DNA of 64,000 nt from Oikopleura dioica (Eukaryota; Animalia; Chordata): the NCBI GenBank assembly GCA_907165135.1, contig OU015569.1:5936769-6000768 (forward strand), read 5' to 3'. Shown piece by piece: positions 30,001 to 64,000 of the stretch. Under the pieces are notes generated by a model. It did no database searches, was not told where the DNA came from, and saw nothing but the letters and a program-made list of their open reading frames with translations. A program made the translations under genes and the position numbers. Each line of letters opens with the position of its first letter. The stretch's first letter is position 1.

Positions 30001-33000
30001 CTGCCCAAGAAAGCCCCAAAGCGCCAGAAGCTGCCAAAGCCAAGCAAGCTCCCAAAAAGAAGAAAAATAACAAGAAATAGGAATCACGCAAAATGACCCA
30101 TTTTTGACATTTCTCCGCCAAAATTTTATTTCTCACGCAAAATGTTTTTCTTGCGCAAATCTTTACTTGAAGTTCCGAACACTGAAATAAACATGCAATT
30201 ATAGAAACGATAGTTCTGAAGGCTCCAATGCAAGCAAATCGACAGAGGAGAAGCTTGAAAAACTTCAAAAGAAGTACCAAATGGAGAAGAAGAGATCTGA
30301 AACGATGCATGACGAGTTCCGAATCTTGAACAGAAAGTATCAACAATCTAAAGATACTCTTGAACAATTCAAAGCAACGGAGCAAAAACTCAACGCGAAA
30401 CTCAAGGTACTTCGGGTCATGTTATTTTTTGACTCAGTTTCCATTCAGGGAGTTTTAGAAGAACAAGATAGGCGAATCGCGGAATCTGCGCAGAGCGAGC
30501 AAGAGAGTGCGACAATGATCAAAGATCTTCAAGAAAGAGTAGCGACATTAGAATGCGCTTCCGACGAAGAACTCAATGAGCGATACACTTCGCTCCAGAA
30601 ACGATATATTGAGTTGGAGTCGAAAGACTTGGACTACACGGAAACCATTGCCACACTGAACAACCAGTTAAACGAGCTGAAAAACGCTCATGAAACCGCG
30701 CTGAAAGAACTTGCGGCACAAGCAAGTAAAGACGAAGAAAGCTCAAATGACGACCATGAAGACTTGCGAATCGCGAAAGTGCACAATGAAGCAACCATCA
30801 AGTCCTTGGAAGCAAAGCTCGAGATTCTTCAAATGGAGAAGAGACGAACATCTACCGATGAAAACTCGAATAGCTCTGCAAATGTACGAGAGGATCAGTA
30901 TGAAAAGGACCTCGCAGAAGCTTTGCGCAAAGTTGATGATCTGTCCATCGAGGTAAAAGAAAAAAAAATGATTAAAAACTTACTCATTTTTAGCTTTTCA
31001 ACAAAAGTCAACAGCTCGATGAGGCCAAATATCAAATCGAGCAGCTAAAACTTTCCCCGGCGAATGAAACTGACAAGGCTGTCGCTGAATTACAACAGAA
31101 ACTTAACCATGTTGAAAAGCAAAAAGCCCAAATCGTTTTATCTGCTGTAAAGAACAGCGATAAATATGCTGCAGAAATCGAAGAATTGAAAGAGAAAATC
31201 TCCGAATTAGAAAAACAAGAGGAAGATCAAGGCAAAAATGTGTCGTCCGAATCCGCTCAGGCGATAGAAGAACTCAAGGAAAGCAACAAGCGATTGTATT
31301 CGGAGCTTGTGGCGTCTGAAACCAGTGAACAAACGCTGCGAAAGGAGATAGAAACTGCAAGAGCAAATGTGTCGAGACTCGAAGTACAGAACTCGACAGT
31401 GCTTGAAGAAGTGAGTCGGCTCAATGACACTCTTGCCGCAGCAGAAACTGAAATCAACAAAATGCGCGATGAAATTTACAGTTTCAAGGTATGATTAAAT
31501 CCATGTAAACTTCTCTGAAGCAAACACTCTCTTAGGACTCACACACTTTATCTTCAAGTGGATCTTCTATCAGCAGCTCACCAGAAGACTTATCAGCAAA
31601 ATACACTAAACTGACATGCATTTACAGAGCAAAACTTGAGGAAATTGTTAAACTAAGCAAAGAGCTCCAAAAGTACGTGCTATTCAATCATAAGTACTCG
31701 TCTATACCGTGATAAAACATTATGTTTTCAGGAAAGAATCTTTGGAGAACGATTTAAAAGTCGCCAACGAAACTATCAACAACAAGGATCAGAGCCTACA
31801 AGATATTCTCTCCAAAAATACAGCATTATCTTCCAAGGTTAAAGTCTTGGAAGAAGACTTAGAAGAAATGAAAAACGAGGTGGACAGAAAGGCGGACGCA
31901 ATAAAGAAAATGAAATCCGGCAAAAACGACAGACAGTGGTCCCAAATGCTGGCTAACAACGGCGTGCCTGAATCGGGTAGAGTTTCTCCTCAACACCATG
32001 TACAACATCACACTGACAACTTTTACGATGAAAACATCGAAAATGAATAAATTGCTGCAACAATCTTTTATGCATTGACGAATGTCTTCTATGATTTCGC
32101 AGTTGAAAGTGGTCAGTAGGAAGTTGAGCTGGTTATTTCGTGTGTCTAAATGAGTTTATAGACTTGTCCTCGTTTTCATCTGATGCTGAGGAGGACTTTG
32201 CAGTTTCGACTCCGAATGTCGCGATGCAGTTGAGAATCAAGGACGACACTATTCGAGAGTTGAGACAGCATCTTGAAGTGAGAACGGCCGAGTTTGAAGC
32301 CTTAGAAGCCAAACTAGCGGATATCAGTCTTAGGAACAGTGTTCAAAATTATCAGTAAACCCAAATTTTCGTAAATGGTAGAGGAGTATTGAATCTGAAT
32401 TAAGAATAAAAAATACATCGGAGGATGAAATTCGAGAGCAATTGTCCAAACTAATGGTGCAAATCAAAGAAGTACGAGATGATAATGATAGACTCGAGCA
32501 AGAAAATCTTGATCTAAAGGTTTAGTAAATTAAAGAAGTTTACAACTTATCTGAAATCAAGGAAGAGTGCAGCAAACTTATGGAAGAGCAGCTAGCCCAA
32601 CCCTCAAGTGTTGAATCAATCCAAAGACAATTAGATGATTTGACAGAGATTGTCGAGGTTTTTGATTTTTTAAATTTTTCATGAAAATATTCATAAGTCA
32701 AAAAATAACGACGAAGAAAAACTGAGGAAAGAATTGGAAGAATTGCGCGCCAGAATTCGAGAGTACGAGGACGCAGAAGAAGTTCGATCAAACTTATTCC
32801 ACGGGTCTCGTGGGAGCTCTCCGTTCTGGGTTCGCACAAAAAATTTAGTTTTAAAAAACGGCAGACAAAGACAATGCCTATCCATAAAAGCCTGACACAC
32901 TTGCCGACTCTTTGGCTGCATTAAACGACGAGAACCATTTCCTTCGAAGAAACCTGTCGAAGTCAGAGCTCGAAATCGAAGAACTAAAGGATCAACTCGA

Positions 33001-46533: not shown

Positions 46534-48258
46534 TTAAGTTGCTTCAGGGATTTCGTCCAGGGAGGGGAGAAGATCGTCTATAATTGGAGGGCCTTCCAGA
46601 GAGCCTTCTTTATTTTCAATCACTGTGGGCAGATCTTGCTCCATGGCGGAAGAAGCATCATTCTCTTGCGATTCTCCTCCGTTAATTCCCAGATTAGAAA
46701 GGCTTTCTTCAAGAGGGCTCGGAGCCTCTGTTATTCCTGTAGTCCCTCGTTGCAACCCAGGAATTGATACCGACGGATCCTCATTAAAGTCAGCCTCTTT
46801 TTCATACTCGTACTCGGGTTCGGAGTCTATATCAAAGATACCGTCCCATTCGTGGATCATTTCCACCATCAGCTCTTCGTAGAATTCGCATACAAGCTGA
46901 AATAACACGTAATTGAGTGTCATGAACATTTTTTTACCTTCGGACAGTTTTTGCGGCAGTCTTCGCTTTTTACGAAATCAATTATCTTGCTATCTTTCCA
47001 CTCGATTGCAAAGTAAACTGAATAGAAGATGCTTATTAAAATTGTTTTTCTTTTACAGTAGTTTCTAGTGCCTCTCGAGACGCTAAGATAATTCTTACTT
47101 TGGCCGTCGTTGTCTGCAACGCATTCGTGAATTTTGACAGCTTCAAAGCCGCGATTAAAGCCGACTTTCTCTAGATCAGCCCAGGGATCGTCTTCTTTCT
47201 TTTCGTCACCGACGACCTCTTCATCCTCCTCTTTCGCCGCCTTCTTTTTCTCATTCGTCTCAGCGATTTGATCAGTCTGGGGTCCGTCTTGGCTTTCGTC
47301 ATCTGAATTCTGAATGTGCATCGCTTCAAGTGCTTCATCTTCCCACGGTTTCTCCCATTTGATATCTGGGTGCGCCGGATCTATCAGCGGCGCTTTTTTC
47401 GTCTGACGCTCTTTCTTGAGAAAGTTCGGATCGACAGATTCTTCATCCTCCACTTTCTCTTCATTCTCATCGGCTGCTTCTGGCTCATCATTTGCTTCGT
47501 CGACATCGTCGTCTTCGAAAGCCAATTGTTCCAATTTTCCAGGGTTCGAACGTCTGTACTCAGCAACCAAAAGTTGTCCAGGTGTGTCCTGTGGATCTGG
47601 TCTTTCTTCAGCGAGCTCTCCCTTCCTTGAATCAACGAAATTCGATTCTACTCTTTGTGAAGGTTCAATCATTGAAATAGAGGCAAGTATTATTTCCTGA
47701 TTTCTGAATATTGAATCAATCGGAAATGAAGAACCCCGGCTAAATATCATTTCGGCTTGGAGAGCTTCTTCGGCCGTCTCCTCTCGTTTCCGCTTTAGTC
47801 CAACAATCCGTATCGGAGGAATCTTTGGCTCATGGCTTGGTTTTTCTTCCTCTACATTTTCCAGAGGCTCCTGTGGTTTATCTTTGTCTTTATTTCGCCT
47901 CGAGCTTTTCCGACGTTTTTCTTTCGCACTATCTCTCGATTTTTTTCTATTCCTGGACTTTTTCTCCTTTTGTAATTTTATATCAGCGGCATGCTTTTCC
48001 TCGAATTCTCTGATTCTATCCGCGCAGTCTAGGAAGTTAGATTTGAAAAATCTTGCCAGAACCGAAAAAAATTACCTAGATTCTCTTCTGGCTCCCATGT
48101 ATTCTGCTCATCGTCGTAGCCGGCCCATTTTATCAAATACTCGATACCGCCCTGAATAAACGCTAGAACTCCCGAACACTTCCTTCGACACTCACTTGTC
48201 GTTTACGTTTGCCGAGGATCTTCTCGACTTCGAACTCCTCTTCTGATGCCACACTCAT
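46534..48258 (-). CDS. Chromodomain protein with a long acidic (Asp/Glu-rich) C-terminal region, at least 4 exons.
   Basis: Exon 1 is [21 protein letters not shown]|gtgagt. Exon 2 is [25 protein letters not shown]..., a canonical chromo signature (E-x-ILxxR...G.xEYLxKWxGY...NTWEPEENL). The 276-aa and 131-aa ORFs (46920-47750, 46534-46929) are extremely acidic ([26 protein letters not shown]...). Confidence 0.75.
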
Positions 48259-48461
48259 CTAAATCCGCTGCGAATAAATAGACAATTGAACAAAACGCGG
48301 TTTTTTGTACAATACTGTATCTTTATTATTTTGTCATTATAAAGGCAGTTTGAAATCTATTGGAAAAAGATATAGAACAGATGCTGTTGAAAAAAGGTAA
48401 ATGGTAGTGGGACGATAGCTCAGACATTTGAGCATCGGTAGAATTTTGCGAGATCAGAATT

Positions 48462-49881
48462 CGCAGTCGAGGCTGAACTGGTTCTCGACGGAGTCAGGAT
48501 CGGCGTCCAAGTGGGCCATGACGCCAGCGCGGGCGTACTCGGATACTTTCTTCTCGAAGAAGTTGGTTTTGCCCTCCAACGAAATCATCTCCATGAAGTC
48601 GAAAGGATTTTCGACCTTGTAAATCTAAATAAAAAGCAGGTCATCAGCTGTTCCCACTAAACAACGATGGTGTTTTTGGAGCCATCAACAGAAAGCGAGT
48701 TATTATGCCCTTCAAAAACACGAATCGAGATTATTTACCTTTGGGCAGTCGAGCTCGACGAGGAGGCGGTCGGCCACAAATTCGATGTAGGTCTTCATTA
48801 AGTCGCAGTTCATGCCAATCAGGCGAACTGGAAGTGCGTCTACGAGGAACTCCTGCTCGATGCTGACGGCGTCGCGGATGATGGCGATGATCTGCTCTTG
48901 GGAGGGCTTTTGAACGAGGTGCTTGAACATAAGACAGGCGAAGTCAGTGTGCAGACCTAAAACAGCTTGAGAATCGCTTCGATGAAAAATACTCTTACCT
49001 TCGTCGCGGGAGATGAGCTCATTGGAGAAGGTGACTCCAGGCATAAGGCCTCGCTTCTTGAGCCAGAAAATCGCAGCGAAGGAACCGGAGAAAAAGATGC
49101 CCTCGACAGCGGCGAATGCGATGACACGGATGGAGTAGGGGGCATCGGCTCCAATCCACTTCAAAGCCCAGTCAGCCTTCTTCTTGATGGCAGGCATCGT
49201 CTCGATCGCGTTGAAAAGACCCATCTTTTCTTTTGTGTCCGTGACCAAGTTTTCAATCAGCTTGGCGTACATTTCTGAGTGGATGTTCTCCATCATTATC
49301 TAGTTAGCGAGTGTCAGAGAGTTTAAACTGTTATTCAGAAGTACCTGGAAGCCATAGAAAGCCCGGGCCTCGGGGATTTGGACTTCGGACATGAACCTGT
49401 CGACAAGGTTTTCGTTGACGATTCCGTCGCTGGCGGCGAAGAAGGCGAGCACGTGCTTGATGAAATACTGCTCTTCTTTTTTGAGTTTTCGCCAGTCATC
49501 CATGTCGCGGCCAAGGTCGACTTCCTCCGTCGTCCAGAAAGATGCCAGTGCTTTTTTGTACATCCGCCAGATATCTGAATTTATCGATCGCCATCGCGCT
49601 CAAAAACGAATGTACTCACCGTGATATTCGATAGGGAAAATGACGAATCGTGAGGCGTTTTCCTTGAGAAGCGGCTCCATTTGAGGGTCGAAGGAAGCCA
49701 AATCGTCGACCAAAACGGGCTGTTGCTGCTGTTTGTCGAGGGCAAGGCCAGTAGAACCAGTCTTGGGTTGATCCATCGACTTGGCGATGTCGACCTTGGC
49801 GAAGGAAGAAGTCATCTTCGTCAAATCGTTCTTGGTCAGCTCACCAAAGGGTTGGGAGTTCTCCTTCTCGACTGGCGGCAT
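48462..49881 (-). CDS. RRM2: Ribonucleotide reductase small subunit (R2), 4 exons.
   Basis: N-terminal exon 49600-49881 (...[15 protein letters not shown]). Exon 49300-49563 ([48 protein letters not shown]...EARAFYGFQ). Exon 48712-49296 ([11 protein letters not shown]...[30 protein letters not shown]...[15 protein letters not shown]). The C-terminal exon ends ...[16 protein letters not shown] at about 48462. The iron-ligand and tyrosyl-radical region matches the R2 consensus. Confidence 0.92.
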
Positions 49882-50115: not shown

Positions 50116-52160
50116 TTCGAATATTCCAGATTCTTTGTTGCGCAAAAATGGTAATAACTCCGCAATACCCGGTAATGTCCGTCATTTTTTTGGCTAGCAA
50201 AGTTATAAGATGCTGCTTCATCAGCTGCTATTGACCTTTGTAACGGATTTTACAATTTGACCATCTCTTTTTTGGAGTCTTCTTGTCATTCAACTTGCTG
50301 GATGGAATCCAAGCTCAACTCTTACCGTATATTCTTCTGACACAAGTGCACAATCAGTATACACCCTCACCAAAGCTTCCCCTTGACGTCTTCCATGGTG
50401 CCTGCAAGTATTGAAATACGAAGATCTACTCGTCCAGAAAGGGCCTTACGGTAAGGCCCTTACCAACAGCTCTAGACTCTAGAGTCTAGACAAACCTCTC
50501 AAGGGATGATTTTCCCACGATCTTGGTGGGAAAAAGTCTATTGACAGATTGTTCTATTATACAAGAATACATCCCTCCCTAAAGCTTCAAGATCGAAAAT
50601 GCAATTTACTAAGACTTGAATATCCGATTACGTAGTACCCGAGATAACTCAACTTCATCAGCTCCTCAAATTGCCTGGATTCTATGACTTAGATTCTAAG
50701 CCTTAGAATGAACCCTGCTGAAATGCTTTTCTTGCCCTGCATAAATGAACATATCACCAAAGGCTTCTTCCAAATAAGTCATAAAATCATTTTTATAAGA
50801 AAGAGTCTTTTCGAACCGATGATCAAATGTATTGAAAATACTATTGTCGATCACATGTTAACGGAGAAACAAAAGCAGCTGCAAACACGAATAATTATTT
50901 AACAATTGATAAAAAAGAAGAGAAACGGAGAAAACCTCTCGAAACGCGTACGGGGGCTCTTTGTTCAAGGGAAGGTTTTGTTGTTGTAAGTGTAGTTGTA
51001 TCAATTTATCATCTGTTTCAGAAGGAAAGGTAGAAATGAGATTAAAATAGCTGGTAATGCCACCGTGTTTGTGGTTCAATTTTATTTGTATTTTTTGGAA
51101 TTTTCTCGGCTTGAAAGAGATGTACGTGAAGAGGGTTACGAAAGATGGATGGGTTGAACTTGGGGCTTTACAGGGCGATACAATACGGGAGAGCGCCCGC
51201 GCACGGTGGAAAATAAGAAGAGTGCGAAAGCAAACGCCCCCGTAAAAGAAAAAATCACAAGTACACGCCTTTTTAGAATAAAAAAGTTAACGCTCTCTAT
51301 GTATTCAACGGCTTCATGAGACGCCAGAGTCGCGAAATGAAGGGGCGCAAGTCTGGGACCTGATAATGAAGTGGCCAGGCTGGGTAGTGCTTGTAAACTA
51401 CAGTAAGAAGCGATAGCAGCATTTATCCGTGAACCAGCGACCCCTGGCAGAAATACATGCAAGGGCTGAAAACATAGAAGAGTATAGAAGCCAGTGTCCT
51501 GATTCTGATATAATCAAGGAGAAATAAATTTACGTTTGATTACCATTTTCCTGGGCGACTAGCTCATAGAAATTGAAAAATGAAAATGGTGACGGGGCGG
51601 GAACAGGGCAAAATAGAGGAAATAAATTGGATATCTTTATTTGGATGATCGTGAATTTCATTTCATGCGTTTTTTTTAATTGAATTTACGGTTATTTGCT
51701 TAACGGTTCGATTGGATTAGAAGAATTTGAACTTTTTTTTAACCTGACTAGGGCACTGGAGTGGAATAGAGTGTGCCTGAATCTGGCAAGGCCCAAGGAT
51801 AACGGGCTGAAGTGCGGGACGAGTACACCAGCGCGAAGGTGTAATAGTGAAAAGAAAAAAAAACAACATAGTAATATAGACTTACAGGAAAAAGAATTTA
51901 AGTTAGATTGAAGGTCCCTAAGACATGTATCCGAATAAATTAAGAATTAGACGGCGTTCGGCGGTGGGGTTGATTCGGCCCCGCAACTGAACGCGCTGTT
52001 CACAGGTAATTTTTTTTCATTGTTGATAAATTTGAGATTTAAAATACTTAGAATTTGAAGAGCTATAATTTGACATTGGTTGAAATTGTAACTAGAGGGT
52101 CAATTCTTTAATGAAATTGATGCGTCTCTTCTCACATAGAACAAGAAGCGGGGCATTGTC

Positions 52161-52887
<727 letters not shown>

Positions 52888-53169
52888 TTGACGAGCTGCT
52901 TTTGTTTTTGAAGAGGTTCGTTTAGACCACTGGCCACCGGTTGATTACGACTCAAACAGAAACAAGCACTTCACGAGAGTGACGCCTGCGCGTGTTGATT
53001 CTAAACGCGAAACGACGGTTAGAGCACAATCAACCTGTGAAAAACTGATCAAAAGTTTCCTCGAAAACAGGTTTTTGTTGCGCAGTATTTTTTAGAACCC
53101 AGCACGATTTTTATTGATCCAATCAACATGACGAAAGGATTTAGGGTCAATTCATCATTCGTTCTCAAT

Positions 53170-53800
53170 CAGCGGGCGCTAGTTCGTTTACTTCTTTCTT
53201 CGCAACTTGCCGAGCTCAGCCTTGACGATTCGGTTGCGGGCCTGCTTCAATCGCATGAGCTTGAATCGGTCGAAGTCGGTCAAGTTAGCTCGGATGTTCT
53301 TTCGGGCAATTCCCTTGGCCAAGTCAGTCTCGGCGAACTTGTTGGCGATATCGGCGGCGGCGAAAGCCTGAAAAGAATCAATTATCGGAAAAGAGAAAAA
53401 GAACGCTTACCTTCTTGACAGTGCCGGGTCGGGCGCCAACGTTGATCTTGACGGAAAGGTCGGTGATTTGGATGGCCTTGACAGAGACGGTGTATCGGTT
53501 GAGGTTTCCGTCGTCGACGAGAAGTCTAAAGTGAAAAGTCAGAAATGCCGGCTTTATAAACCTATTCACCGGTTGAGGTCGATAACGTTGGTGATGGCGC
53601 AGGCCTTCTTGAGGGATGGGACGTAGACGACACCGCCGATCTGGACGAATTCAGTGAAGACCATACTGAGTGATTTTAGGTCACGATTCACAAACGTCTG
53701 AAAAGCAAGAGAGTCAGCAAGGATCAGAATAGGTTTCGGCTTGTTTTTTGGTTCGCGGATGAAAACGGCGCGAATGTGAAGTGATTGAACGTGCATGGGT
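53170..53800 (-). CDS. Small basic protein (ribosomal-protein-like composition), 3 exons, family not assigned.
   Basis: Exons 53566-53796 (...KPKPILILADSLAFQTFVNRDLKSLSMVFTEFVQIGGVVYVPSLKKACAITNVIDLNR), 53378-53569 (LLVDDGNLNRYTVSVKAIQITDLSVKINVGARPGTVKK) and about 53170-53380 after a ttttcag acceptor (AFAAADIANKFAETDLAKGIARKNIRANLTDFDRFKLMRLKQARNRIVKAELGKLRRKK*). The antisense 96-aa ORF is low-complexity. Confidence 0.5.
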
Positions 53801-54008
53801 CAGAAGAAGAAAGGTTCAGGTCAGTCCTCTTTGAAATAAAAGAGTCAGTTAAAATAAAGAATAGAATTGGGAGTTTGGAATACTGTACATGTTGATCCTT
53901 GGAATGAAGCTCGATAGGAACGAAAAAAGATCTTGATCAACTTTTTTGATCATTTTTGAGCATAAACATGTTTTTTTACGATTTCTTGAAGATTGCAGCT
54001 TCAGGAGC

Positions 54009-55059
54009 CAAATCGCTTTTTGGCCTCGGCCTCAGGACGCGCTCTGTTCAGCACCTAAATGAATGTTACTCAGGGAAAATATTTCAGACTCGTTACCTTT
54101 AGGAAGTCGCTAGTTTTGTTTCTCATTCTTGAATTAATGTATGCTTTGCTACATTTGATATGGTAGTGAAGGTAATTGCGGAAGGTATGAATAAGATCTG
54201 AATTAAAAACGGAAATGAGCAACGGGATGACTACAGGGATATTCTCACCTATCGTTTTGTCGCGAGTTCCATCAGCAAAGTGACGGGGCAAAAGGACGAA
54301 AGTGATGTAGCCGACATCTTCTCCGGATCTAGCGTCTGTTCCACGCAGCTCAGATGGTGGCTCTTTTGTCGAAAACAGAACCTTACAGCGAATTATGAGA
54401 AACGCGTTCAAAATATTTTTTTTACCTGTGGGGCGGTTGCTGAAGCTCTTCTCCCTTCTTTAAACTCTTGGAGGAAGACGCCACCAACAACAATGTCGTC
54501 CTTTTCTCTGAAAGTGGTGGAGAAGATCACGGTAACGCGATCGGACTTTGCCTCAACGTAGACGCTCTCGCCCTCTCTGAAATGAATAACGGCGCGTTGA
54601 ATTTGACTCCCGCTGGCCTGAAACAGAACTTGTGAACTTTTCAGTGTTGATTTCGTGCAAGGCTACCTGGGCTTGAAAATATTTCTCAAAAACGGCTGCG
54701 AAGCAGTTTCGCTTCAGCCGAGCAGCGTCTCGCGCCAACTGCTCGTAATTCTCTGGGATCGCCGAGAGCGGAAAGGCCAGGACGATGCGTTTGCCAACGC
54801 TTTGGAGAAATTGCCCGTAGACTTCCTTTAGTTTATCGGTGGCACCGTGCTTCTCGAGTTGGTCGAAGAAGGCGATTTCAAGCGCCAGCTCAAGTCGATC
54901 ACGATTGCTCCCATCTGGCGAGTAAAGATGATAGATACAGCCGTCGAAGTCGACGATGCGCGCGTTCACGTGATCGAACTTGCCTTTTTCACGCCCCGAC
55001 TTGAAGTGGTTGGTGAGCGCGTCGAACACGCCACGGTTTTCGACTTCGAGCAGAATCAT
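54009..55059 (-). CDS. ARPC2: Arp2/3 complex subunit 2 (ARPC2 / p34-Arc), about 4 exons.
   Basis: [20 protein letters not shown]...[13 protein letters not shown]...[15 protein letters not shown] (54553-55059). The middle exons are about 54420-54590. The C-terminal exon (54070-54411) contains [14 protein letters not shown]...[34 protein letters not shown]. The final exon is ...[17 protein letters not shown] (about 54009-54075). It is collinear with ARPC2. Confidence 0.9.
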
Positions 55060-55162
55060 TTGCTGAAGAGACTGGAGTTAAAAATAAAAATCGATGATTG
55101 GCGATGTTGGATCAAAGGGCAGTCAGTAGTCGAAGAAAAAGACTTGAGAGTGGAACTCTTAT

Positions 55163-56254
55163 TTGTCGGGAAAATCCTTGAGCCCCTGAATGTGCGTGTT
55201 TTGAGTTTTCACCACTCGATTGTTTTTCCTCTTCTTGCGTTTTACTGAAGTAGGAACCTAAAACGAAAAAATGTATGGAAAAAGAATGAGAGAAAAGTTC
55301 GTACCTTCCGAACACCAGGATCGTCGGCGAAAGTGATTCCCTGTTGCGCAAGATATTCAGCGATTTTCTCTTCGTCAACAGATTCGACAGTAATTGAGCG
55401 CCAGAGCTTCTGGAAGGTTTCGTCCATTTCTATTTCCAAACTTCTGTCATTGAAGAAAATCACAGTCTAGGCAGTATGAATCAATTTTTGCACTTTTTTT
55501 CTTTCGACGAATGTAGTCTTCTGTATTTTAGTTAGCTGCTTACCTTCTTATCGGGGCGATTGTGTAGATGAATATTCTTCTTTTCGCTGTGGTATTTGAG
55601 GATCTTGTCTGCCTTGGGGAGACTTTCTTGTACCATTTCTTTGGTGACGCCACCAAGTCCATCATGGTAATGCCGCTCGAGAAACTGGAGAAACGACTTC
55701 TTGTCTCTGATGCCCTCAATTGACGGCTTGTAGACGTATTTGACGACGTCGCCGGGAATTTGACGCAGCTTGGGATTCTTGGGCAGCGCGTCTTCAAGGC
55801 CCATGCGCGCTGCGTTCGCTGAGCAAGTCAGTTCAGTTCTAGTGTTCCGGCTTGCGCATTTTACCTACACACTGTGGTCGTCGAGTTGCACTCCTCGAGC
55901 ACTTCGTCGAGACTCAAGGGCAGCAGCTCGTTCTGCAAGTGGCGATTCTTCATGTGAGTGACGATTTTGTGGATCAAATGGAAGTTCTTAACCGGTACGA
56001 CTTTCCCGCGTGACTTGCTACTTCCTTCGAGACGGGGTCGCTTTGATGCTGGCTGAGATCTAGAAGGAAGAGTATTCACACTACGTTCGGATCTATTTCT
56101 TTATCAGTTAATTATTCAGTTCTATAATCATTTGGGAACTCTCTAAGTGATAACTTGAAATACGATTCATGTCCATGACTCACTTGTTTTCAATAACAGG
56201 AACATTCTGAGCTCGTTTCAGGAAAGCCTCTCTCTGCTTCAGTAAATCGGACAT
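55163..56254 (-). CDS. GTF2E2: General transcription factor IIE beta subunit (TFIIE-beta), about 5 exons.
   Basis: MSDLLKQREAFLKRAQNVPVIENK|gtgag (56254-56183). ...KNFHLIHKIVTHMKNRHLQNELLPLSLDEVLEE (55861-56079). LQFLERHYHDGLGGV...KILKYHSEKK (55532-55804). [44 protein letters not shown] (55242-55463). A basic tail VKRKKRKNNRVVKTQNTHIQGLKDFPDK* follows. It is collinear with human TFIIE-beta. Confidence 0.85.
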
Positions 56255-57619
56255 TCCTCTTCCTCTTTCTTTTTATCTATTTATAGGAATTTTCTTCTTT
56301 CAGGCCAAAATTGGATTTTTTCTTTACGAGCGAACTCTTCGTTTTTTCAGTAGTTTCTTCTGGGAATCTCTCCGTTTATTCGAAAAAGAAAAAAATGAAT
56401 GTTGAGTGTGAAGATATGGGATAGTTCTTTTGGTGTTGGCGGAGACGGAGCCACGTGTGCTGGCGCGACAACTGGTCACTTGGTGGTGGAGCAGAGACGC
56501 GAGTAGACGAGAGCTCTCGTGCTCGACGAAACTGTTTTGCGGCGGCGGGCTCTGGGCAACATGAACGGGCGCAGGGCCAATCGGCCTTCTCCATTTCCAG
56601 CGTGGGCGTAAGATCTTTCCACGCTCCACGGAGAACGGCGCATAAACGCGCCCCGCGCAAGGAGGAATCTCTTCAATCACAAATCCAAAGCGCATTCACC
56701 AGCCACTCGACTAATCACGCCCTCAAGGTCAAGTCTGTCCTCTACCCATGCAGTTCTCCTTCCAAAGGGGCGTTTTTTCAAGGCTGGATGAACTTTTTTT
56801 TAAGTAACCTTTTATCAAGATCGAACCAAACCGAAACTTTTCCACCGTGTCTTGAAATTATTGCTTTGAAATTCAATATTTCCATTGTATTTTAAAGACA
56901 AATCAATATATTTAGTTGCTGTGCTCAAGAGAAATTGCTTCCCATGCTGAGAGAAAAGATCTAGAATTAGTAACACTCACTTATCTCAATTGAACTTGCA
57001 ATTCTTTCTCTCCCTGAAAAGAAAAAATCTGCGTTGATAGTCTGCTTGCATGTCATGCAAATTCAGAATTTACAGTGCTTTCCCTTCAGCTTAGTCACTA
57101 TCTAATTAATTTCTGAGTAAATACGTCTGTCTCTCTTTATAAAATACCCAGCATATTCAGAAATGCCAATCGCGGTAATTGTCCGCTTTTGAAGTTTATC
57201 ACTCAAGTTAAAAACAAGGAAAAAGTACCACGTTTTCATATTTTCTGCCTGAGTGTTTCTTCCTTGATATCAATCAACGAATTCAAATTCAAAAAATGTG
57301 AGTTGCAATTTTTGAGGTGATCTATCCGAGATCCGTCCGTTTTTCTTTCGGATTGTCGTGAATGATTTAATATTTATCCTTTATTAGTAGTATGAACAGA
57401 GAAAGAACATTAGGAGAAGGATTGGTAGCTTTTCATTTTGAGGGGATGTAGAAATGAAGATGCCTCTGTCGAAAAAGGCTGATTTGAAAGTTGAAAATGG
57501 GGAATTTTTATTTCGAAATGACTTTTCGGCTGGAAATGCATGGAGATCGTTACAATAACAGTAGACGAGAATAGAAACAACGTGAATGAGTATAAAAGCG
57601 AGCAAGAAAAGGGGACTGG

Positions 57620-59493
57620 TTAGAATCCAAAGTCGCGATCTTGGAGAACAGCCGGAGCAATCATGGTCCAAGTGTAGAGCAAAACGCACACCCAGGCGGA
57701 ACACATTTTTACCCACACGGGAGCCCATCCGGCGATGACAAGCGGATTATTGTCCTAAAACAGCGTAGAAAACTGTACTATCAAGTTAGTTCAGTCTTAC
57801 CTTGCTGGCTTCCGCGGCTTGAGAGATATTGAACCAGTAAGTCAATGTCATCATAATGTAAAGAGTTCCAAGGGAAAACATGAAGTGCAGATAGCTTAAA
57901 ATTTGACCCTGTTAAACCCTGCTCATGGCCATTTTAAAACCTATAGCTGTATTGAGTAGCGTCTTCTTCGTCGTCCCAGGTTCCGCCTTCAGGATCGCTT
58001 TGATCTGTCATTACAACTGTGTCCGCTTCAGCGGGTTTTCCAGAGCCTTAAGAATTTTTAGAATTTCGCAAGACTTTCGCAAAAGCCGATAATGATAATC
58101 TGGGAAGTGAAATAATTTGTGAAAATGAATCTGTGAGTGTTAAATTGTCGCGTAAATTGGCAAGCATATTTCAAGAAAAGCATGCAAAACGGGTTACCTT
58201 CATTCAGTCTTTCGTAAGTTGCTAAGTTCACGGTGAAGCTTGATTAATCTCAGTGGTACAAGACAAATTTCATAAAAATTTGAAAATCACCGATTCAATA
58301 CCTGCGGAGGAATTGGTAAGGGAGGACCAGAGGACTGCCAAGAAGAAAAGAATCAAGCCAACGATAGATTGGGCGTTAAATCCAGTTATTCCTAGGAGCG
58401 AAAGATAAAAAACGAGGACTGAATTGAATAAGAATGCCTTGAGTCGGATCAGTGTTTGGGTCTGGCTGGCCGCCATCAGTAATGTTGAGGATGCTGGCGA
58501 TGCTTGGATTGCAATCGAGCTCGGGCGAATTCGACATCGAAGACCAAGTCAAGAACATAACGTAAGCAGAAACAACTGCAGACTGGAGGAGTCCAGATGC
58601 CGGGTTATGCTCCTGTACCTAAACTCTCGTGTTAACGAAGTTCTTGACAAACGGACTCATACCTTGGGAAGGATCGAAACGACAGAAATTATAAAGCAAA
58701 GGATCATATTAAAGCTGATGAAGAATTTGTGTAGGCTGCAGGAGTTTGTTGTCTCCGTAAAGTTGCCACCGTAAAAGTAAAAGAGATATCCAATGGCGAC
58801 ACTTGTCAGGACGAAGATCGAGAATGTAGCAAAAATGAGCCCTGCGAACCAACATTTTTGGTCGCGCTCGTCGTCGGCATCTTCCATGTTCTGCACTGCC
58901 CAGGCGTTGATTCGATACGCAAAATCAATGAAGAGCACCAGTTGAATCAAAATAAAGGCCAATCCGCCGATGAGTCCAAACACGTACATGACCTGATCGA
59001 ATGGCTCGGATGGGATAAAGAAGGCGGCGGTGATAAAAGCTGCGAGAATAAGAAACTTGATTCCCCAAAAACCATTTTGAATTCCAGAGCGAGGATCCTT
59101 CGAGCTTCGTGTGCCCAGCATCAAAATCATGAAGAGCCAAAAGAAGCAGCACATTCCGAAGCAGACTCGGTAAGCGGCCTCGAATCCGACGAGTCGAGTA
59201 CAGTCAATCGCGCCATCGCCAGTTGTCTGCGTGCCAATAAGACTGTCGAGTTGGGCTGTGACGTCAGAAATTCCATCATTGCGGGTGCCCTTGCAGAGCA
59301 TGGGAACTTTTCGGAGCGCGTCTTCTAGTCCATTTGTGCACATAATCATCGCAAGAATACTTCCGAGGAGCATAAAAAGCGCATACATCAGTCGCGCACT
59401 CGTTGAGTTTTTGCATGATGGACATGCAGAACAAAGACACGAAGCTGCTTGGCCCGTTACACAACAGGCGAGCGATCCCAGTCCGAGACACAT
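57620..59493 (-). CDS. SERINC: Serine incorporator (SERINC/TDE1/TMS1 family) multi-pass membrane protein, at least 5 exons.
   Basis: The 278-aa exon 58657-59493 ([27 protein letters not shown]...[17 protein letters not shown]...[17 protein letters not shown]...[19 protein letters not shown]) is collinear with SERINC N-terminal halves. Later exons are ...[27 protein letters not shown] (58376-58558), [41 protein letters not shown] (58270-58476), ...[22 protein letters not shown] (about 57950-58040), [21 protein letters not shown] (about 57800-57895) and ...[39 protein letters not shown] (57620-57750). Confidence 0.9.
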
Positions 59494-59536
59494 TCTCTAA
59501 AAATGAAAATCTTGGTTGCGCAATTTTTCATTTGAA

Positions 59537-60334
59537 TCAGGAATCAGCGTCTTTTGTAGAAGATTTTTGGTCCTCAAAGTCGGATAAACAAAAAGGAGGC
59601 CCATGGCCTGGAAAAATCAAATCAGGCTTGGCATGTTGCTGAATGAAGAGACGCGAGGCTCGCGAGAGCGCCGGTTCTTCAGAGAGAGATTCATAGAATG
59701 ATTCATCATCTTTTTCATCCCAGAGGTCACCAACAAACGCAAATTTTGAGTAGCGTTCGTTGCGAAATATCAAATCGCCGGTGATAATGAGACTGCAGCA
59801 GCCACCAGTGTGTCCGGGCGTTGTTATGTATTCCAGAGAGACATCTTCATTTTCGAATTTCAGAAGACAGGCTCCTATTTGCTTGTCTGACGGAAGTAGA
59901 CGAGGGCTACGGAAACGCTCCTTTATACTTGTATCCCGGCCAACGCTTATCACAGCTATAAAAATCCAAAATCAATATAAAAACATGCATTACCTGATGG
60001 AAACAGATTCAAGTTTCCCACGTGATCAGAGTGTCCGTGGGAGCAGAATACGGCGTCGATGGCACTTATGTTCTTCTCTGATAGTTCTAGGCAAAACTCA
60101 TCCGCTAGCTATCCTTTTTTTGACTTTACTTTCAGTAATTGTATCTCTTTCATGCGCCGCCCCACAATCAAAGAGAACATTTTGCACTGGAGAAATTTCG
60201 GGCTTCTGCTTTTCGAACTCGAAAGTCTCATTGACGGCATTTCTCAGCGAAATCAAACATACAGTGCAGCGTGCATGAAAAACAGAGTTAATTTCTCGAG
60301 CGTAGCCTTCTTGAATCAACGTCACTTCCGCCAT
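59537..60334 (-). CDS. MBLAC1: Metallo-beta-lactamase fold protein (MBLAC1-like), about 3 exons.
   Basis: MAEVTLIQEGYARE...NVLFDCG (start 60334; an in-frame upstream Met at 60418 is also possible). ...LELSEKNISAIDAVFCSHGHSDHVGNLNLFPS| (HxHxDH zinc motif, about 59995-60090). The 59537-59953 exon carries ...TTPGHTGGCCSLII...FPGHGPPF... The stop TGA is at 59537-59539. Confidence 0.8.
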
Positions 60335-60469
60335 TCTGGAAATGAAAAAAATATTAACTTGGTGGGTCAGAAATTCATTTTCTATTAGGAAAATCTGGGG
60401 CTCGGAAGTTAGGATCATGCAGGTCCATATTTAGTTCTTCAGCAGACATATCGCCTTGTCTTCTGTCTA

Positions 60470-62528
60470 ACGGCTTCTTTGCATCACGTGCTGCTTTAAT
60501 TTCGGCCATTTTCGCTCTAAAATCGAATCAGCTGAAGGATTGCAACTGAGGTTCTTACCTAGCTTTTTGCTTAATCCTTTCTTTTTGTTTCCTGCCCGTG
60601 TTTTTAATTTCATTTTCTGGAGCTGTTCTGGTCGGGTGCTTCTTATCGTATCTGGCGAGTTCTTGAGCTTCGAACTTTGCCATTTGCTCAATCTCCTTTT
60701 TCACAAGCGCCGATGTCTATAAATCCAATTATGCATAAAAACAAGGCTTTCGCTCGAACCTTGAAAAGATGCCCCTGATTGGGGCCTAGAAGACGGCCGA
60801 CTCTTTCGAATTGGTCACCGTCCATGCCACTAAAAGAGTCTTCTGCATCTTCGTAAAAACGATTTTCAAGAGGAATTCCAAGACGGTTTAATATTTTTGA
60901 AGAAATCTGAGGAATAGCAGGTTGCAGAAGAATAGCAGAAACACGTAGAAGCTCATAACATGCATGAATAGCTTCAGTAAAAGAGTTTTAGATTCTGCTT
61001 TATCTAATAACTATGCTCTACCTGAATCTTTCTGCATGCGTTCACTTTTTATATCTCTATCCAATTTAAAAATCTTTTCGTTTGTCATGAATTGAAGTCC
61101 TTCTTCAACAGCTCGAATGACGCAGTTCATTGCACTTGGAAGCTGTCCTTGGTCGACAAATTTCGCGTACACTTCTGGCAACTCTTGAACAGTTTCGATG
61201 AGATATTTTTCGCCGTCGGGGCGATCTAACAGCGAGTCAGGGAAAAGAGTCGGATATGCTCCACTAGGGTTGAGATTCTTCGAAGTGGTTCTTGAGAGAA
61301 GATTCGCGATTTTATTTGCCAAGTCGCTATCAGACTGAATTCTGAGTAGCTCGTCCTGAAAGTCCACGTTCTTGAGGGTAGCATGTTTGAGACAGAACCA
61401 ACGAACAGCGTCACTTTGATTTCCGACTAATTCGAGCAGCTCCTTTGGAGTGACAAAGTTGTCCAGACTTTTGGACATTTTCATTCCATTTCGCGTCCAA
61501 TGACCATGAACGAAGACTTTCTTGGGCAGAGGAAGATCCGCAGCCAGAAGCATCGCTGGCCAATAAATACAGTGGAATCGAGCGATATCGATCCCGAGAA
61601 CTTGAAGTTGCGGCGGCCAGAAATCGAGAGCGTTTTCATGTCTTGCGTAGCCAGCTGCGGTCAAGTAGTTGATTAACGCCTCGAACCAAACGTACATTGT
61701 ATGATTTGGATCATCAGGAACAGCAACGCCCCATGGAACTCTCTTTCTCGGCCTAGAAATAGAAAGACTGGTGTTGCCAGTATTTCTTCGCTCCTTCAGC
61801 TCATCGATTAAAACTTTAGCAACATCTGGGGTAACAGCTTTTTCTATCCATGCTTCTATTTCGCTTAAAAATGGCTCAAAATCGAAGATATAGTTTTCTT
61901 CAGAAATCCATTCTAGTTGATGGCCGTTTACGCTACTAAAGTGTTTGCCGTCCTTTTCTACTATTTCTTTATTTCCGACAAATGATTCATCTGGTGTCGA
62001 ATACCATCCTTCGTAATTCTTAATTCTTATATGACCCTTCGATCTTAGCCGGCTCCACAGCTTCTGGGCGGCCTCGTGATGCTCAGGATTTGTCGTTCTC
62101 ATGTAAATTGCATCGTCGAGGGAGGCAACAGAAATGGAGAATTTTTTAAACGTTCTTCTATACAAGTCGGAGATGTTATTGACGAGCAGCTCTGGGTGAT
62201 CGTAGCCCTGTTGTGCAGCTGAGCGAATGATCTTTTGACCGTGTTCATCAGTCCCGATGGAGAATTTACTAGGGACATCGTTTATCTTATTCCAACGGTG
62301 GTAAAAGTCCCCAATTACACTAGAGTGAATATGACCAATGTGGGGAGTAGACGTCGCGTAATAAATGGGACAGGTAACAAAATTGGTCTGCTTGTTTAAT
62401 ATGCGTACGCCATGCGTTTTTCTCAGGTCACCACGAGAGGCGGAAGAAGTCTGCAATGATCCTAGATATCGATAGCTGAGTATTTGCGACTTCGGTCTGA
62501 GTCCGATCATGCTAAACAATCTAATCAT
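60470..62528 (-). CDS. MARS2: Methionyl-tRNA synthetase, organellar (mitochondrial) short type, about 3 exons.
   Basis: The 505-aa first exon begins with a presequence-like N-terminus (MIRLFSMIGLRPKSQILSYRYLGSLQTSSASRGDLRK). It carries the class-I HIGH motif (YYATSTPHIGHIHSS) and KMSKS. Downstream exons are about 60730-60900 (...IPQISSKILNRLGIPLENRFYEDAEDSF...) and about 60470-60700 (Lys-rich tail). Confidence 0.9.
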
Positions 62529-62842
62529 CAGTGAGGATATTTAATTTAGTGATTGCATTTCTCTAAGTCACATGGTTGGTCTTCACAGAGAAGAAATATT
62601 TTTGAGGGAGTAACAGGGGAGAAGTTAGACGGACGAAGACTTCAAAATAAGATGAAATATTGCCATAAATGCTATTTCGATAAGCAGGCAATTAATAATA
62701 ACAAAGACAGTGAAGTTATGTTTTATATAAGGCCCTGAGCAGTCCAGAGCAGTCCAGAAACATATAAAAGATGGTAAAGGGTTCTGGCGAAGAAGAAAAT
62801 TATACTAGTTGGAGGCTCTTGGCACTCAGAAAATTTCAACAT

Positions 62843-64000
62843 CTTCAGGAGCATCGAGATCCTTGTAGCTGGCGACTGGGCGATTGGTATACGAGTCACG
62901 GCGATCCGGCTATGATTCAGTTAGCAAGAGGGATGGATCAGTGATCATTGATTTTACACCAGAAGATAAAAGACACCATTTCTGCACCGCGTAGAAAACT
63001 AACTCTGAGCTACTGATTCTCAAATATGAGACCACCGCACCGCGCTCACCACGGTTAAAACTTACATGCTCGTGCGATTGGTGATGTTGACTGGTGTTGT
63101 TGTAGTTGTTCTGTCTTACCTGGTGATGTCTCATCGGCATGTGGCCGGGTGGCATGTGTCCTGGTGGTGGTCGGAACGGCTGAATAGTTTGCACTGGATC
63201 ATTGGGCCTCTTTGGATCAGCCAAGTACCGGTTGAAGAATTTCACCTCTGAATAAAATGTGAACAACAAAAAATCAATAAAGAACAATACCGTTGCGGAC
63301 CGCTTCGACTTTTTCGGCGTGTTTGATAAGAATATGCTTCTTCACAAACTCCGGGCCTTTGAACTTTTTGCCTGAAAGTGGGCAAAGATATTTTTCTGGG
63401 CCGAGCTGTTGGGTATTTGCTTCAATGAACTTCTTGATTTCTTCCTCTTCGTCTTTCATTCCTAGCTTTTTGATTTCCTCTTCATCTAGTTTTGTGCCTT
63501 CTGTGAGCATTCCGTTGCACTTCTCGAGGAACTTCTTTACGTAATCATTCATTTCGAAAGGCATGATAGGATTGCTGAAAGACGTTTAACAAACAATCAG
63601 ATATGTAGAAAGTCACCTTGGGGGCTCGCCTCGAACATGAATAATTCCGCAACGATTTGGCATCTCGTCTTCGTTTCGATATTCAGAGTGATTGTAGTAA
63701 TCAACTGAATGAACGAGGCGGAGATACAGAGTGAGAATGTCAGCGATTTGCGCCAATTTTTTGTCGTAGTTGAGATGGATCTCATCAGCGTTCTTTGGGT
63801 CATCTTCTACCGGGTTCTTCTCAAGATAATCTTCCGTCTTGAGGATGACCGGATTTGGCTTGAATTTTGGTAAGATTGAGCGAGTTGGCTCCGGATCTTA
63901 CTTGTTTGCCCGTGTACAGCTCGTATTTCTCGTCGAATTTCTTGATAAGCGACATGAGGTTGAGAATGTCCGCCTTCATGATGGTGTTGTGATTAGCCAG
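62843..64000 (-). CDS. SRRT: SRRT/ARS2 (Serrate RNA effector molecule) C-terminal half. It is partial, and the 5' end lies beyond the window.
   Basis: ...[37 protein letters not shown] (about 63590-63800). [16 protein letters not shown]...[33 protein letters not shown] (63274-63564). ...[15 protein letters not shown]...[11 protein letters not shown]... (62910-63250). The terminal exon ends ...[19 protein letters not shown] at about 62843. It is collinear with the ARS2 C-terminal ZnF region. Confidence 0.85.

Follow-up and report, generated by a model that had tools for sequence, protein, structure and literature searches.

Spliced-leader-resolved operons very probably underlie a closely packed minus-strand gene block of Oikopleura dioica

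The locus studied here raises the question of whether closely packed genes of one strand, several of which are preceded by an unpaired splice acceptor almost abutting the ATG, are transcribed together and then separated by spliced-leader (SL) trans-splicing. It lies in a stretch of 64,000 nucleotides (nt) of contig OU015569.1 (hereafter the window, whose own numbering is used throughout), which comes from the X-specific region (XSR) of the Okinawan Oikopleura dioica assembly OKI2018_I69. A preliminary description, made from the letters alone, had read positions 54009-62528 as operon-like and had likened them to nematode units resolved by the leaders SL1 and SL2. We find that the region very probably consists of SL-resolved operons of the O. 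dioica type: operon A, (ARS2)-MetRS-MBL-SERINC, where MetRS is a mitochondrial-type methionyl-tRNA synthetase and MBL a metallo-beta-lactamase-fold gene resembling MBLAC1, and operon B, TFIIE-beta-ARPC2, probably extending to RPL14. The operon part of the earlier proposal is borne out by the SL found on SERINC and ARPC2 orthologues and by cis-spliced polycistronic RNAs; its SL1/SL2 framing does not hold.

The O. dioica SL is 40 nt long, ACTCATCCCATTTTTGAGTCCGATTTCGATTGTCTAACAG (PMC6883708). With its 3' end ...GATTGTCTAACAG joined to the acceptors of the window, the first bases following the AG are predicted at 62511, 60335, 59496, 55062, 53697 and 48258 (minus strand). For SERINC, a scan of JGI metagenome and metatranscriptome contigs for the 3' end of the SL, with the conserved SERINC start no more than 10 nt after it, gave one contig, L007 (Ga0314680_10059806), which starts TTTTGAGTCCGATTTCGATTGTCTAACAG/ATGTGTCTCGG (here and below a slash marks the splice point), that is, its leader consists of the 3'-terminal 29 nt of the SL and gives way to the SERINC ATG at the genomic AG. 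The remainder of L007 is 99.6-100% identical to the Norwegian locus, five introns have been removed from it and the leader is not encoded at the locus; the junction used is the AG of gcttttCAG/ATG, orthologous to window 59498-59497. ARPC2 is represented by five independent transcript contigs (L009-L013), from a lineage of 93% identity, that carry the SL, then 7 nt, then the ATG, at a junction which corresponds to the window AG at 55063; L009 has the complete 40-nt SL, and L010-L013 show the same junction in four other runs. Hence a leader is indeed joined at the AGs orthologous to the SERINC and ARPC2 acceptors, where the preliminary description had suggested SL1 or SL2.

Other transcripts connect the cistrons before they are separated. 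Two Logan contigs from two runs (L005 and L006, about 90% identical to Norwegian O. dioica) pass through ARS2, a 425-nt spacer, a MetRS of 667 amino acids (aa) and a 28-nt spacer into MBL, with 10 of 11 introns removed. In L005 (3779-4160) it is MBL intron 1 that is retained, MBL intron 2 and all the MetRS and ARS2 introns being removed; this may reflect either the order of splicing or an intron-retention isoform. Contig L014, which is 100% identical to the distant appendicularian locus L002 described below, joins TFIIE-beta to ARPC2 across a 103-nt spacer, all introns having been spliced out, and extends for 938 nt beyond the ARPC2 stop, which brings it within about 100 nt of the RPL14 ATG. 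A third species (L015) yields the same cis-spliced TFIIE-beta-ARPC2 RNA with a spacer of about 95 nt. Spacers of 300-430 nt are retained in spliced polycistronic RNA. Finally, L008 is an ARPC2 RNA of Okinawa type, 97-100% identical to the window, in which all four introns are removed at the modelled junctions; it spans window 55123 to 53755, starting upstream of the unprocessed acceptor and ending 246 nt past the ARPC2 stop. Taken together, the polycistronic contigs are strong, though not single-molecule, evidence.

How good are the acceptors themselves? The 33 cis-intron acceptors of the window genes were turned into a position-weight matrix (PWM), with which we scored the best site at most 7 nt 5' of each ATG; the window's 1876 ATG triplets, all included, gave the reference for an empirical P. 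As this matrix is small and comes from the same region, the P values are approximate. Genuine cis acceptors have a median score of 5.5 (leave-one-out). The sites before SERINC and ARPC2, which had been called 3' splice acceptors by eye, score like true cis acceptors, and the other sites are listed in Table 1; the PWM scan found no comparable acceptor within 7 nt of the ATG for TFIIE-beta, UBE2D or RNR2. From 30 nt upstream of the stop up to the following ATG, MetRS, MBL, TFIIE-beta and ARPC2 have neither AATAAA nor ATTAAA, which agrees with the earlier remark that the 43-nt gap after MBL is devoid of AATAAA, and such signals are present after SERINC, RPL14, UBE2D and RNR2. The unpaired AG of O. 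dioica is usually followed by A (PMC6389100), as is the case here for MBL, SERINC and RPL14.

Read on the minus strand, the preliminary limits of MBL (ATG 60334, stop 59537), the SERINC ATG at 59493, the 43-nt gap between them and the site cattTTTAG/aga-ATG are all correct; likewise the gap of about 100 nt between TFIIE-beta and the ARPC2 ATG at 55059 measures exactly 99 nt, and ctcTTCAG/caa-ATG stands. The MetRS stop had been misplaced at about 60470, on a TAG which is out of frame, so that the following gap is 40 nt and not about 135 nt.

We then compared the window with two loci of Norwegian O. dioica (L004 = FN653079.1 and L001 = FN655248.1) and with L002, an appendicularian metagenome contig with about 59% MetRS identity. 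The order and orientation MetRS-MBL-SERINC-TFIIE-beta-ARPC2-RPL14-UBE2D are common to the window, Norway and L002, the Norwegian gaps being 28, 32, 1016, 157, 288 and 415 nt along this block. With ARS2 included (window 52161-64000), the block is collinear in all three, and upstream of it L002 and L004 have a sulfatase and a JAB-domain gene. The ATGs of MBL, SERINC and ARPC2 have, in three of three lineages, a pyrimidine tract and AG 0-7 nt ahead of them, while the remainder of the spacer has diverged; no such element precedes the ATG of TFIIE-beta (Okinawa, Norway) or of UBE2D. The Norwegian MetRS-MBL spacer keeps the same TTTCCAG/A-ATG, the Norwegian MBL-SERINC spacer ends in the gcttttCAG/ATG used by L007, and the acceptor at the MetRS ATG is kept as gtttttCAG/c-ATG in Norway and in L005. 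In wild Okinawa-type metagenome contigs the spacers are identical to those of the window, the MetRS-MBL spacer in three of them.

The limits of operon A can be placed as follows. Both in Norwegian O. dioica and in the distant appendicularian the gene immediately upstream of MetRS matches Pfam ARS2, and the ARS2 region of the window is collinear with the ARS2 part of L005; ARS2 is likely an upstream cistron. SERINC is the last cistron, and the operon ends at its AATAAA. Within MetRS, the long first exon (62528-61014, minus strand) encodes 505 aa that are 100% identical to CAG5097262.1 (Oidioi.mRNA.OKI2018_I69.XSR.g15001), and our four-exon model equals that protein exactly over 666 aa. The fourth exon is 60516-60375, with the stop TGA at 60377-60375, and this C-terminal exon is confirmed by the uninterrupted 667-aa open reading frame (ORF) of L005, a spliced transcript of a related lineage. 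The annotated start is 62510; an in-frame ATG at 62528 sits upstream of the acceptor gattgTTTAG/c, and we rejected it as the start because this conserved acceptor intervenes before ATG 62510. The Norwegian GenBank models (L001 4624-5534; L004 10001-12140) mishandle the MetRS 3' end: the protein is cut to 568 or 479 aa, and the last exon either forms an annotated 121-aa gene of its own (L004) or falls within the MBL gene range (L001). The true end is shown by the 667-aa ORF of L005. The coordinates of the Norwegian genes, looked for in the SLOPPR supplements, had no match there.

Two further genes of operon A call for comment. The MBLAC1-like protein matches Pfam Lactamase_B (E=5e-11) and has an HGHSDH motif. 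We considered whether its acceptor could be the end of a cis-intron starting at the GT of ccaaGTtaat, and rejected this candidate because such an intron would be 23 nt long, against a minimum of 38 nt among the 33 modelled introns. In SERINC, intron 2 (58437-58392, minus strand) is GC-AG (caag/GCattc...cctAG/g) and is the sole one of the 33 with a non-GT donor; non-canonical introns are a known trait of O. dioica. A 24-nt in-frame mini-exon of SERINC at 58221-58198 (ATYERLNE) is doubtful: it is missing from the Norway-type mRNA L007, where ...NSSA is joined to GSGKP..., and it may be alternative, lineage-specific or not an exon.

Why two operons and not one? The 1365-nt spacer between SERINC and TFIIE-beta has an AATAAA and a CpG-rich block and no acceptor, and we therefore divide 54009-62528 there. 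The leader before the TFIIE-beta ATG is purine-rich and contains no trans-splice acceptor; the CpG/GC-rich block has a GC content of 0.59, against 0.42 for the window, and a CpG observed/expected ratio of 1.17. This spacer is long elsewhere too (1016 nt in Norway, 783 nt in L002). TFIIE-beta is the first cistron of operon B, and the block at 56720-56450 is likely its promoter, judging from base composition. A second CpG/GC-rich block lies at 50140-50030, upstream of RNR2 (GC 0.63, CpG observed/expected 1.81). Because TFIIE-beta and RNR2 both have no acceptor at the ATG, the two blocks are likely promoters of first cistrons.

Downstream in operon B, the ARPC2 model matches the transcript-derived protein P0146 with 100% identity across 290 aa. 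The acceptor before RPL14 and the 5' untranslated region (UTR) that follows it (53697-53665, minus strand; acgtttgtgaRtcgtgacctaaaat) are kept in Norway, and ARPC2-RPL14 is probably the third junction, with operon B continuing to RPL14. This acceptor stands 33 nt from the ATG, unlike the 0-7 nt of the other trans-spliced genes of the window. UBE2D, the following gene, looks monocistronic: no acceptor precedes it, and Norway has an identical copy of a 23-nt element found 5' of the ATG. This element, ATCAACCGGTGGCCAGTGGTCTA (52945-52923, minus strand), lies about 35 nt upstream of the ATG in a spacer which diverges around it, and may be a promoter or 5' UTR element.

Every modelled gene is on the minus strand, and no translated model contains an internal stop. 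Pfam identifies Lactamase_B, Serinc, TFIIE_beta, P34-Arc, Ribosomal_L14e, UQ_con, Ribonuc_red_sm and Chromo+Chromo_shadow. The 33 modelled introns measure 38-151 nt, mostly about 45 nt, and 32 are GT-AG, a picture which fits the published description of the O. dioica genome (PMC4122922). Rfam (at gathering thresholds) and ARAGORN gave no match over the whole window, hence it holds no SL RNA, 5S or tRNA gene, and no 12-mer of the SL occurs in it.

Table 1. Coordinates of the genes and spacers of the minus-strand run in the window, with the scores of their acceptors
Feature	Position	Strand	Remarks	Acceptor PWM score	P
ARS2/SRRT, 3' part	62826-64000 (runs off window)	-	stop TGA 62828-62826		
ARS2-MetRS spacer, 315 nt	62511-62825	-	ends in acceptor gattgTTTAG/c, AG 62513-62512, 1 nt before MetRS ATG (62510)	6.7	0.017
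MetRS, mitochondrial-type methionyl-tRNA synthetase	60375-62510	-	4 exons, 666 aa		
MetRS-MBL spacer, 40 nt	60335-60374	-	acceptor tttcatTTCCAG/a (TTTCCAG/a-ATG), AG 60337-60336; no AATAAA	7.1	0.013
MBLAC1-like metallo-beta-lactamase-fold gene (MBL)	59537-60334	-	3 exons, 238 aa; stop TGA 59539-59537		
MBL-SERINC spacer, 43 nt	59494-59536	-	acceptor cattTTTAG/aga, AG 59498-59497; no AATAAA	8.5	0.005
SERINC	57620-59493	-	6-7 exons; Pfam Serinc E=1e-134		
Inter-operon spacer, 1365 nt	56255-57619	-	SERINC 3' UTR with AATAAA 57512-57507, CpG/GC-rich block 56720-56450, purine-rich leader		
TFIIE-beta	55159-56254	-	5 exons, 265 aa; stop TAA 55161-55159; Pfam TFIIE_beta + TFA2 winged helix 2		
TFIIE-beta-ARPC2 spacer, 99 nt	55060-55158	-	acceptor ctcTTCAG/caa, AG 55064-55063; no AATAAA	8.5	0.005
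ARPC2 (Arp2/3 p34)	54001-55059	-	5 exons, 290 aa; Pfam P34-Arc E=3e-83		
ARPC2-RPL14 spacer, 336 nt	53665-54000	-	acceptor cttgcTTTTCAG/a, AG 53699-53698, 33 nt before RPL14 ATG; no AATAAA	7.4	
RPL14 (ribosomal protein L14e)	53188-53664	-	AATAAA after gene at 53115		
UBE2D	52161-52887	-	AATAAA after gene at 52112		
RNR2	48454-49881	-	AATAAA after gene at 48327		
RNR2 + 195-nt spacer + HP1-like gene	46534-49881	-	acceptor ggaTTTAG/ATG abuts HP1 ATG, AG 48260-48259	5.8	0.026
HP1-like chromo/chromoshadow gene	46534-48258	-	Pfam Chromo+Chromo_shadow		
CDK2AP-like gene	start 46312	-			

Could these observations arise without operons? The genes might be independent, tightly packed units, each with a promoter inside the upstream gene and a short outron, whose separate transcripts receive the SL; monocistronic SL trans-splicing is the route of many O. 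dioica genes. There is a single SL in this species, which monocistronic and operonic genes receive alike (PMC7986045, PMC1488885), and 693 internal promoters have been mapped inside annotated O. dioica operons (PMC6389100). L008 begins inside the TFIIE-beta-ARPC2 spacer, its 5' end being 36 nt after the TFIIE-beta stop, and this RNA alone is no proof of co-transcription. Other points also weigh against the operons as we propose them. Spacers of 99, 315 and 336 nt exceed the classical criterion of at most 60 nt. The contigs with an SL junction are all from orthologues, and the sole Okinawa-type RNA, L008, is not trans-spliced. Read-through, which the preliminary description had envisaged at two spacers, is observed in orthologues between TFIIE-beta and ARPC2 (L014, L015) and in no contig between MBL and SERINC; nor did we find an SL-MBL junction, the search for MBL homologues having returned genomic metagenome contigs and no transcript. 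Finally, the polycistronic contigs are short-read environmental assemblies, in which overlapping RNAs could in principle be joined by the assembler, although even this would need reads crossing an unprocessed acceptor. Against wholly independent units stand the cis-spliced contigs, which cross the spacers together with both flanking coding regions (ARS2-MetRS-MBL in two runs, TFIIE-beta-ARPC2 in two species), the spacers of 28-43 nt, too small for a promoter outside coding sequence, and the upstream cistrons devoid of AATAAA. We consider such units improbable as an explanation of the block; some independent initiation is likely to occur as well, because internal promoters are documented within O. 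dioica operons.

One may also suspect that there is no trans-splicing signal at all, the motifs being chance pyrimidine-rich tracts, start-codon context or the acceptors of cis-introns in 5' UTRs, and the tight spacing a mere consequence of genome compaction. The genome is indeed extremely compact and T-rich upstream of genes, and an AG of some kind occurs within 7 nt of about 42% of random ATGs. However, the sites score as well as true cis acceptors (P 0.005-0.013 each) and are kept in three lineages whose spacers diverge, the first-cistron or monocistronic neighbours TFIIE-beta and UBE2D do not have the motif, and the mRNAs show the SL, and not a cis exon, joined at these very AGs. The SL-junction contigs already contradict this explanation, which we hold to be very unlikely. 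Still less credit can be given to operons of the strict nematode kind, with SL1 on the first gene and SL2 on the downstream ones via a U-rich element that lies in the roughly 100 nt between a 3' end directed by AAUAAA and the next cistron. The short spacing of genes on one strand, the TTTYAG acceptors and the introns, about 45 nt long, do recall them; but the organism is O. dioica, a chordate, the SERINC and ARPC2 cistrons carry the general 40-nt SL which is found on monocistronic genes too, no AATAAA or ATTAAA precedes the 40- and 43-nt spacers, and the Rfam SL1 and SL2 models have no match in the window. The identity of the organism and the leader on the downstream cistrons already refute it.

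With SL-resolved operons of the O. dioica type as the preferred reading, the block would be expressed as follows. RNA polymerase II would start upstream of the first cistron, for operon B probably in 56720-56450 and for operon A upstream of ARS2, outside the window. One pre-mRNA would be made through all cistrons, as it is in the orthologues, and its cis-introns of about 45 nt would be removed, as they are in the spliced contigs. The single 40-nt SL, provided by SL RNA genes elsewhere in the genome, would be trans-spliced to the unpaired pyrimidine tract and AG located 0-7 nt before the downstream ATGs, by which each message would gain a capped leader and almost no other 5' UTR; this addition is observed for the SERINC and ARPC2 orthologues and presumably extends to MetRS, MBL, RPL14 and the Okinawan lineage itself. 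The 3' ends of the upstream messages would arise within the 40-99 nt spacers with no canonical AAUAAA, as reported for Oikopleura operons, and the last cistrons would use ordinary AATAAA signals.

Further along the same strand, RNR2 and the HP1-like chromodomain gene make up a further plausible candidate operon, in view of their spacing and of the acceptor at the HP1 ATG, although RNR2 is followed by an AATAAA signal; the gap, given before as about 200 nt, measures 195 nt. UBE2D and RNR2 are separated by a 2.3-kb spacer poor in ORFs, which contains at 50471-50490 three TCTAGA motifs that overlap (gtctagactctagagtctagagc). In O. dioica this hexamer has been reported as the male-specific core promoter element (PMC6389100). 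The SERINC acceptor of the distant species L002 itself reads TCTAGA/ATG. Unrelated to the operons, window 27600-32100 (plus strand) is strongly A-rich, with an AT skew of +0.2 to +0.3 and ORFs that encode glutamate/lysine-rich, coiled-coil-like protein segments.

Operons hold 27% of the genes of O. dioica, and the rule by which genes at most 60 nt apart are assigned to them is said to be that of Denoeud et al. 2010. A total of 1,765 operons has been called at <=60 bp (PMC7986045), and the authors of OKI2018_I69 use a limit of <=500 nt (Plessy et al. 2024, PMC11067885). The 40- and 43-nt gaps satisfy both rules and those of 99, 315 and 336 nt only the wider one, falling within the later cut-offs of <=413 and 500 nt (PMC7986045, PMC11067885). 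The <=500-nt rule would take every junction discussed except SERINC-TFIIE-beta, which fails both. The distance rules already applied to this assembly would call these pairs operons automatically, and the finding adds little. Its practical use lies in the corrected 3' end and start of MetRS and in the placing of the limits of two operons, and it provides a worked example in which SL junctions and polycistronic precursors are both confirmed from publicly available assemblies of environmental transcripts.

It is mildly notable that cryptic O. dioica species and a more distant appendicularian share the collinear order of the whole block. Extreme scrambling, without regard to operons, is reported for the genomes of O. 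dioica (PMC11067885), and operons are themselves described as poorly conserved in general. We may tentatively suppose, at less than an even chance, that this collinearity is not mere luck and that purifying selection keeps some O. dioica operons as units, including ones with intercistronic regions of 300-430 nt. If this were true, the <=60-nt rule would under-call the extent of operons, and the deep conservation of this block makes it a possible test case for their selective maintenance.

Among known systems, the SL2-type operons of C. elegans share with the window a polycistronic pre-mRNA, trans-splicing of the downstream cistrons at a TTTCAG-like acceptor near the ATG, and functionally unrelated housekeeping genes. 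They differ in belonging to another phylum with an unrelated SL, whereas here there is no specialised SL2 and no AAUAAA before the spacer, and the spacers are mostly shorter than the ~100 nt typical there. The operons of Ciona intestinalis (Satou et al. 2006/2008) also belong to a tunicate, in which mono- and polycistronic genes share a single SL and upstream cistrons are usually devoid of AATAAA, but most of these operons have no intercistronic DNA and their SL is of 16 nt and not 40. The zero spacing of the Ciona type is not found here, the distance from stop to ATG being 40-99 nt, and 28-32 nt in the tightest Norwegian junctions (the poly(A) sites themselves were not placed). In O. dioica, the SL operon mechanism was reportedly described in 2004 and has been annotated genome-wide since 2010. 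The portion of PMC1488885 which cites Ganot 2004 gives intercistronic regions of 23-30 nt as those first described, with upstream cistrons devoid of AATAAA. The O. dioica operons (Ganot 2004; Denoeud 2010; Danks 2015; Plessy 2024) have in common with the window the organism, the single 40-nt SL, same-strand spacers of tens of nt, an unpaired AG close to the ATG on its 5' side, the base after it often being A, upstream cistrons without AATAAA, and a housekeeping content that includes a ribosomal protein gene. Nothing differs in kind; the window adds the longer junctions of 99, 315 and 336 nt and the collinearity across lineages. The phenomenon is thus already known, and the block is a clean instance of an established O. 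dioica mechanism.

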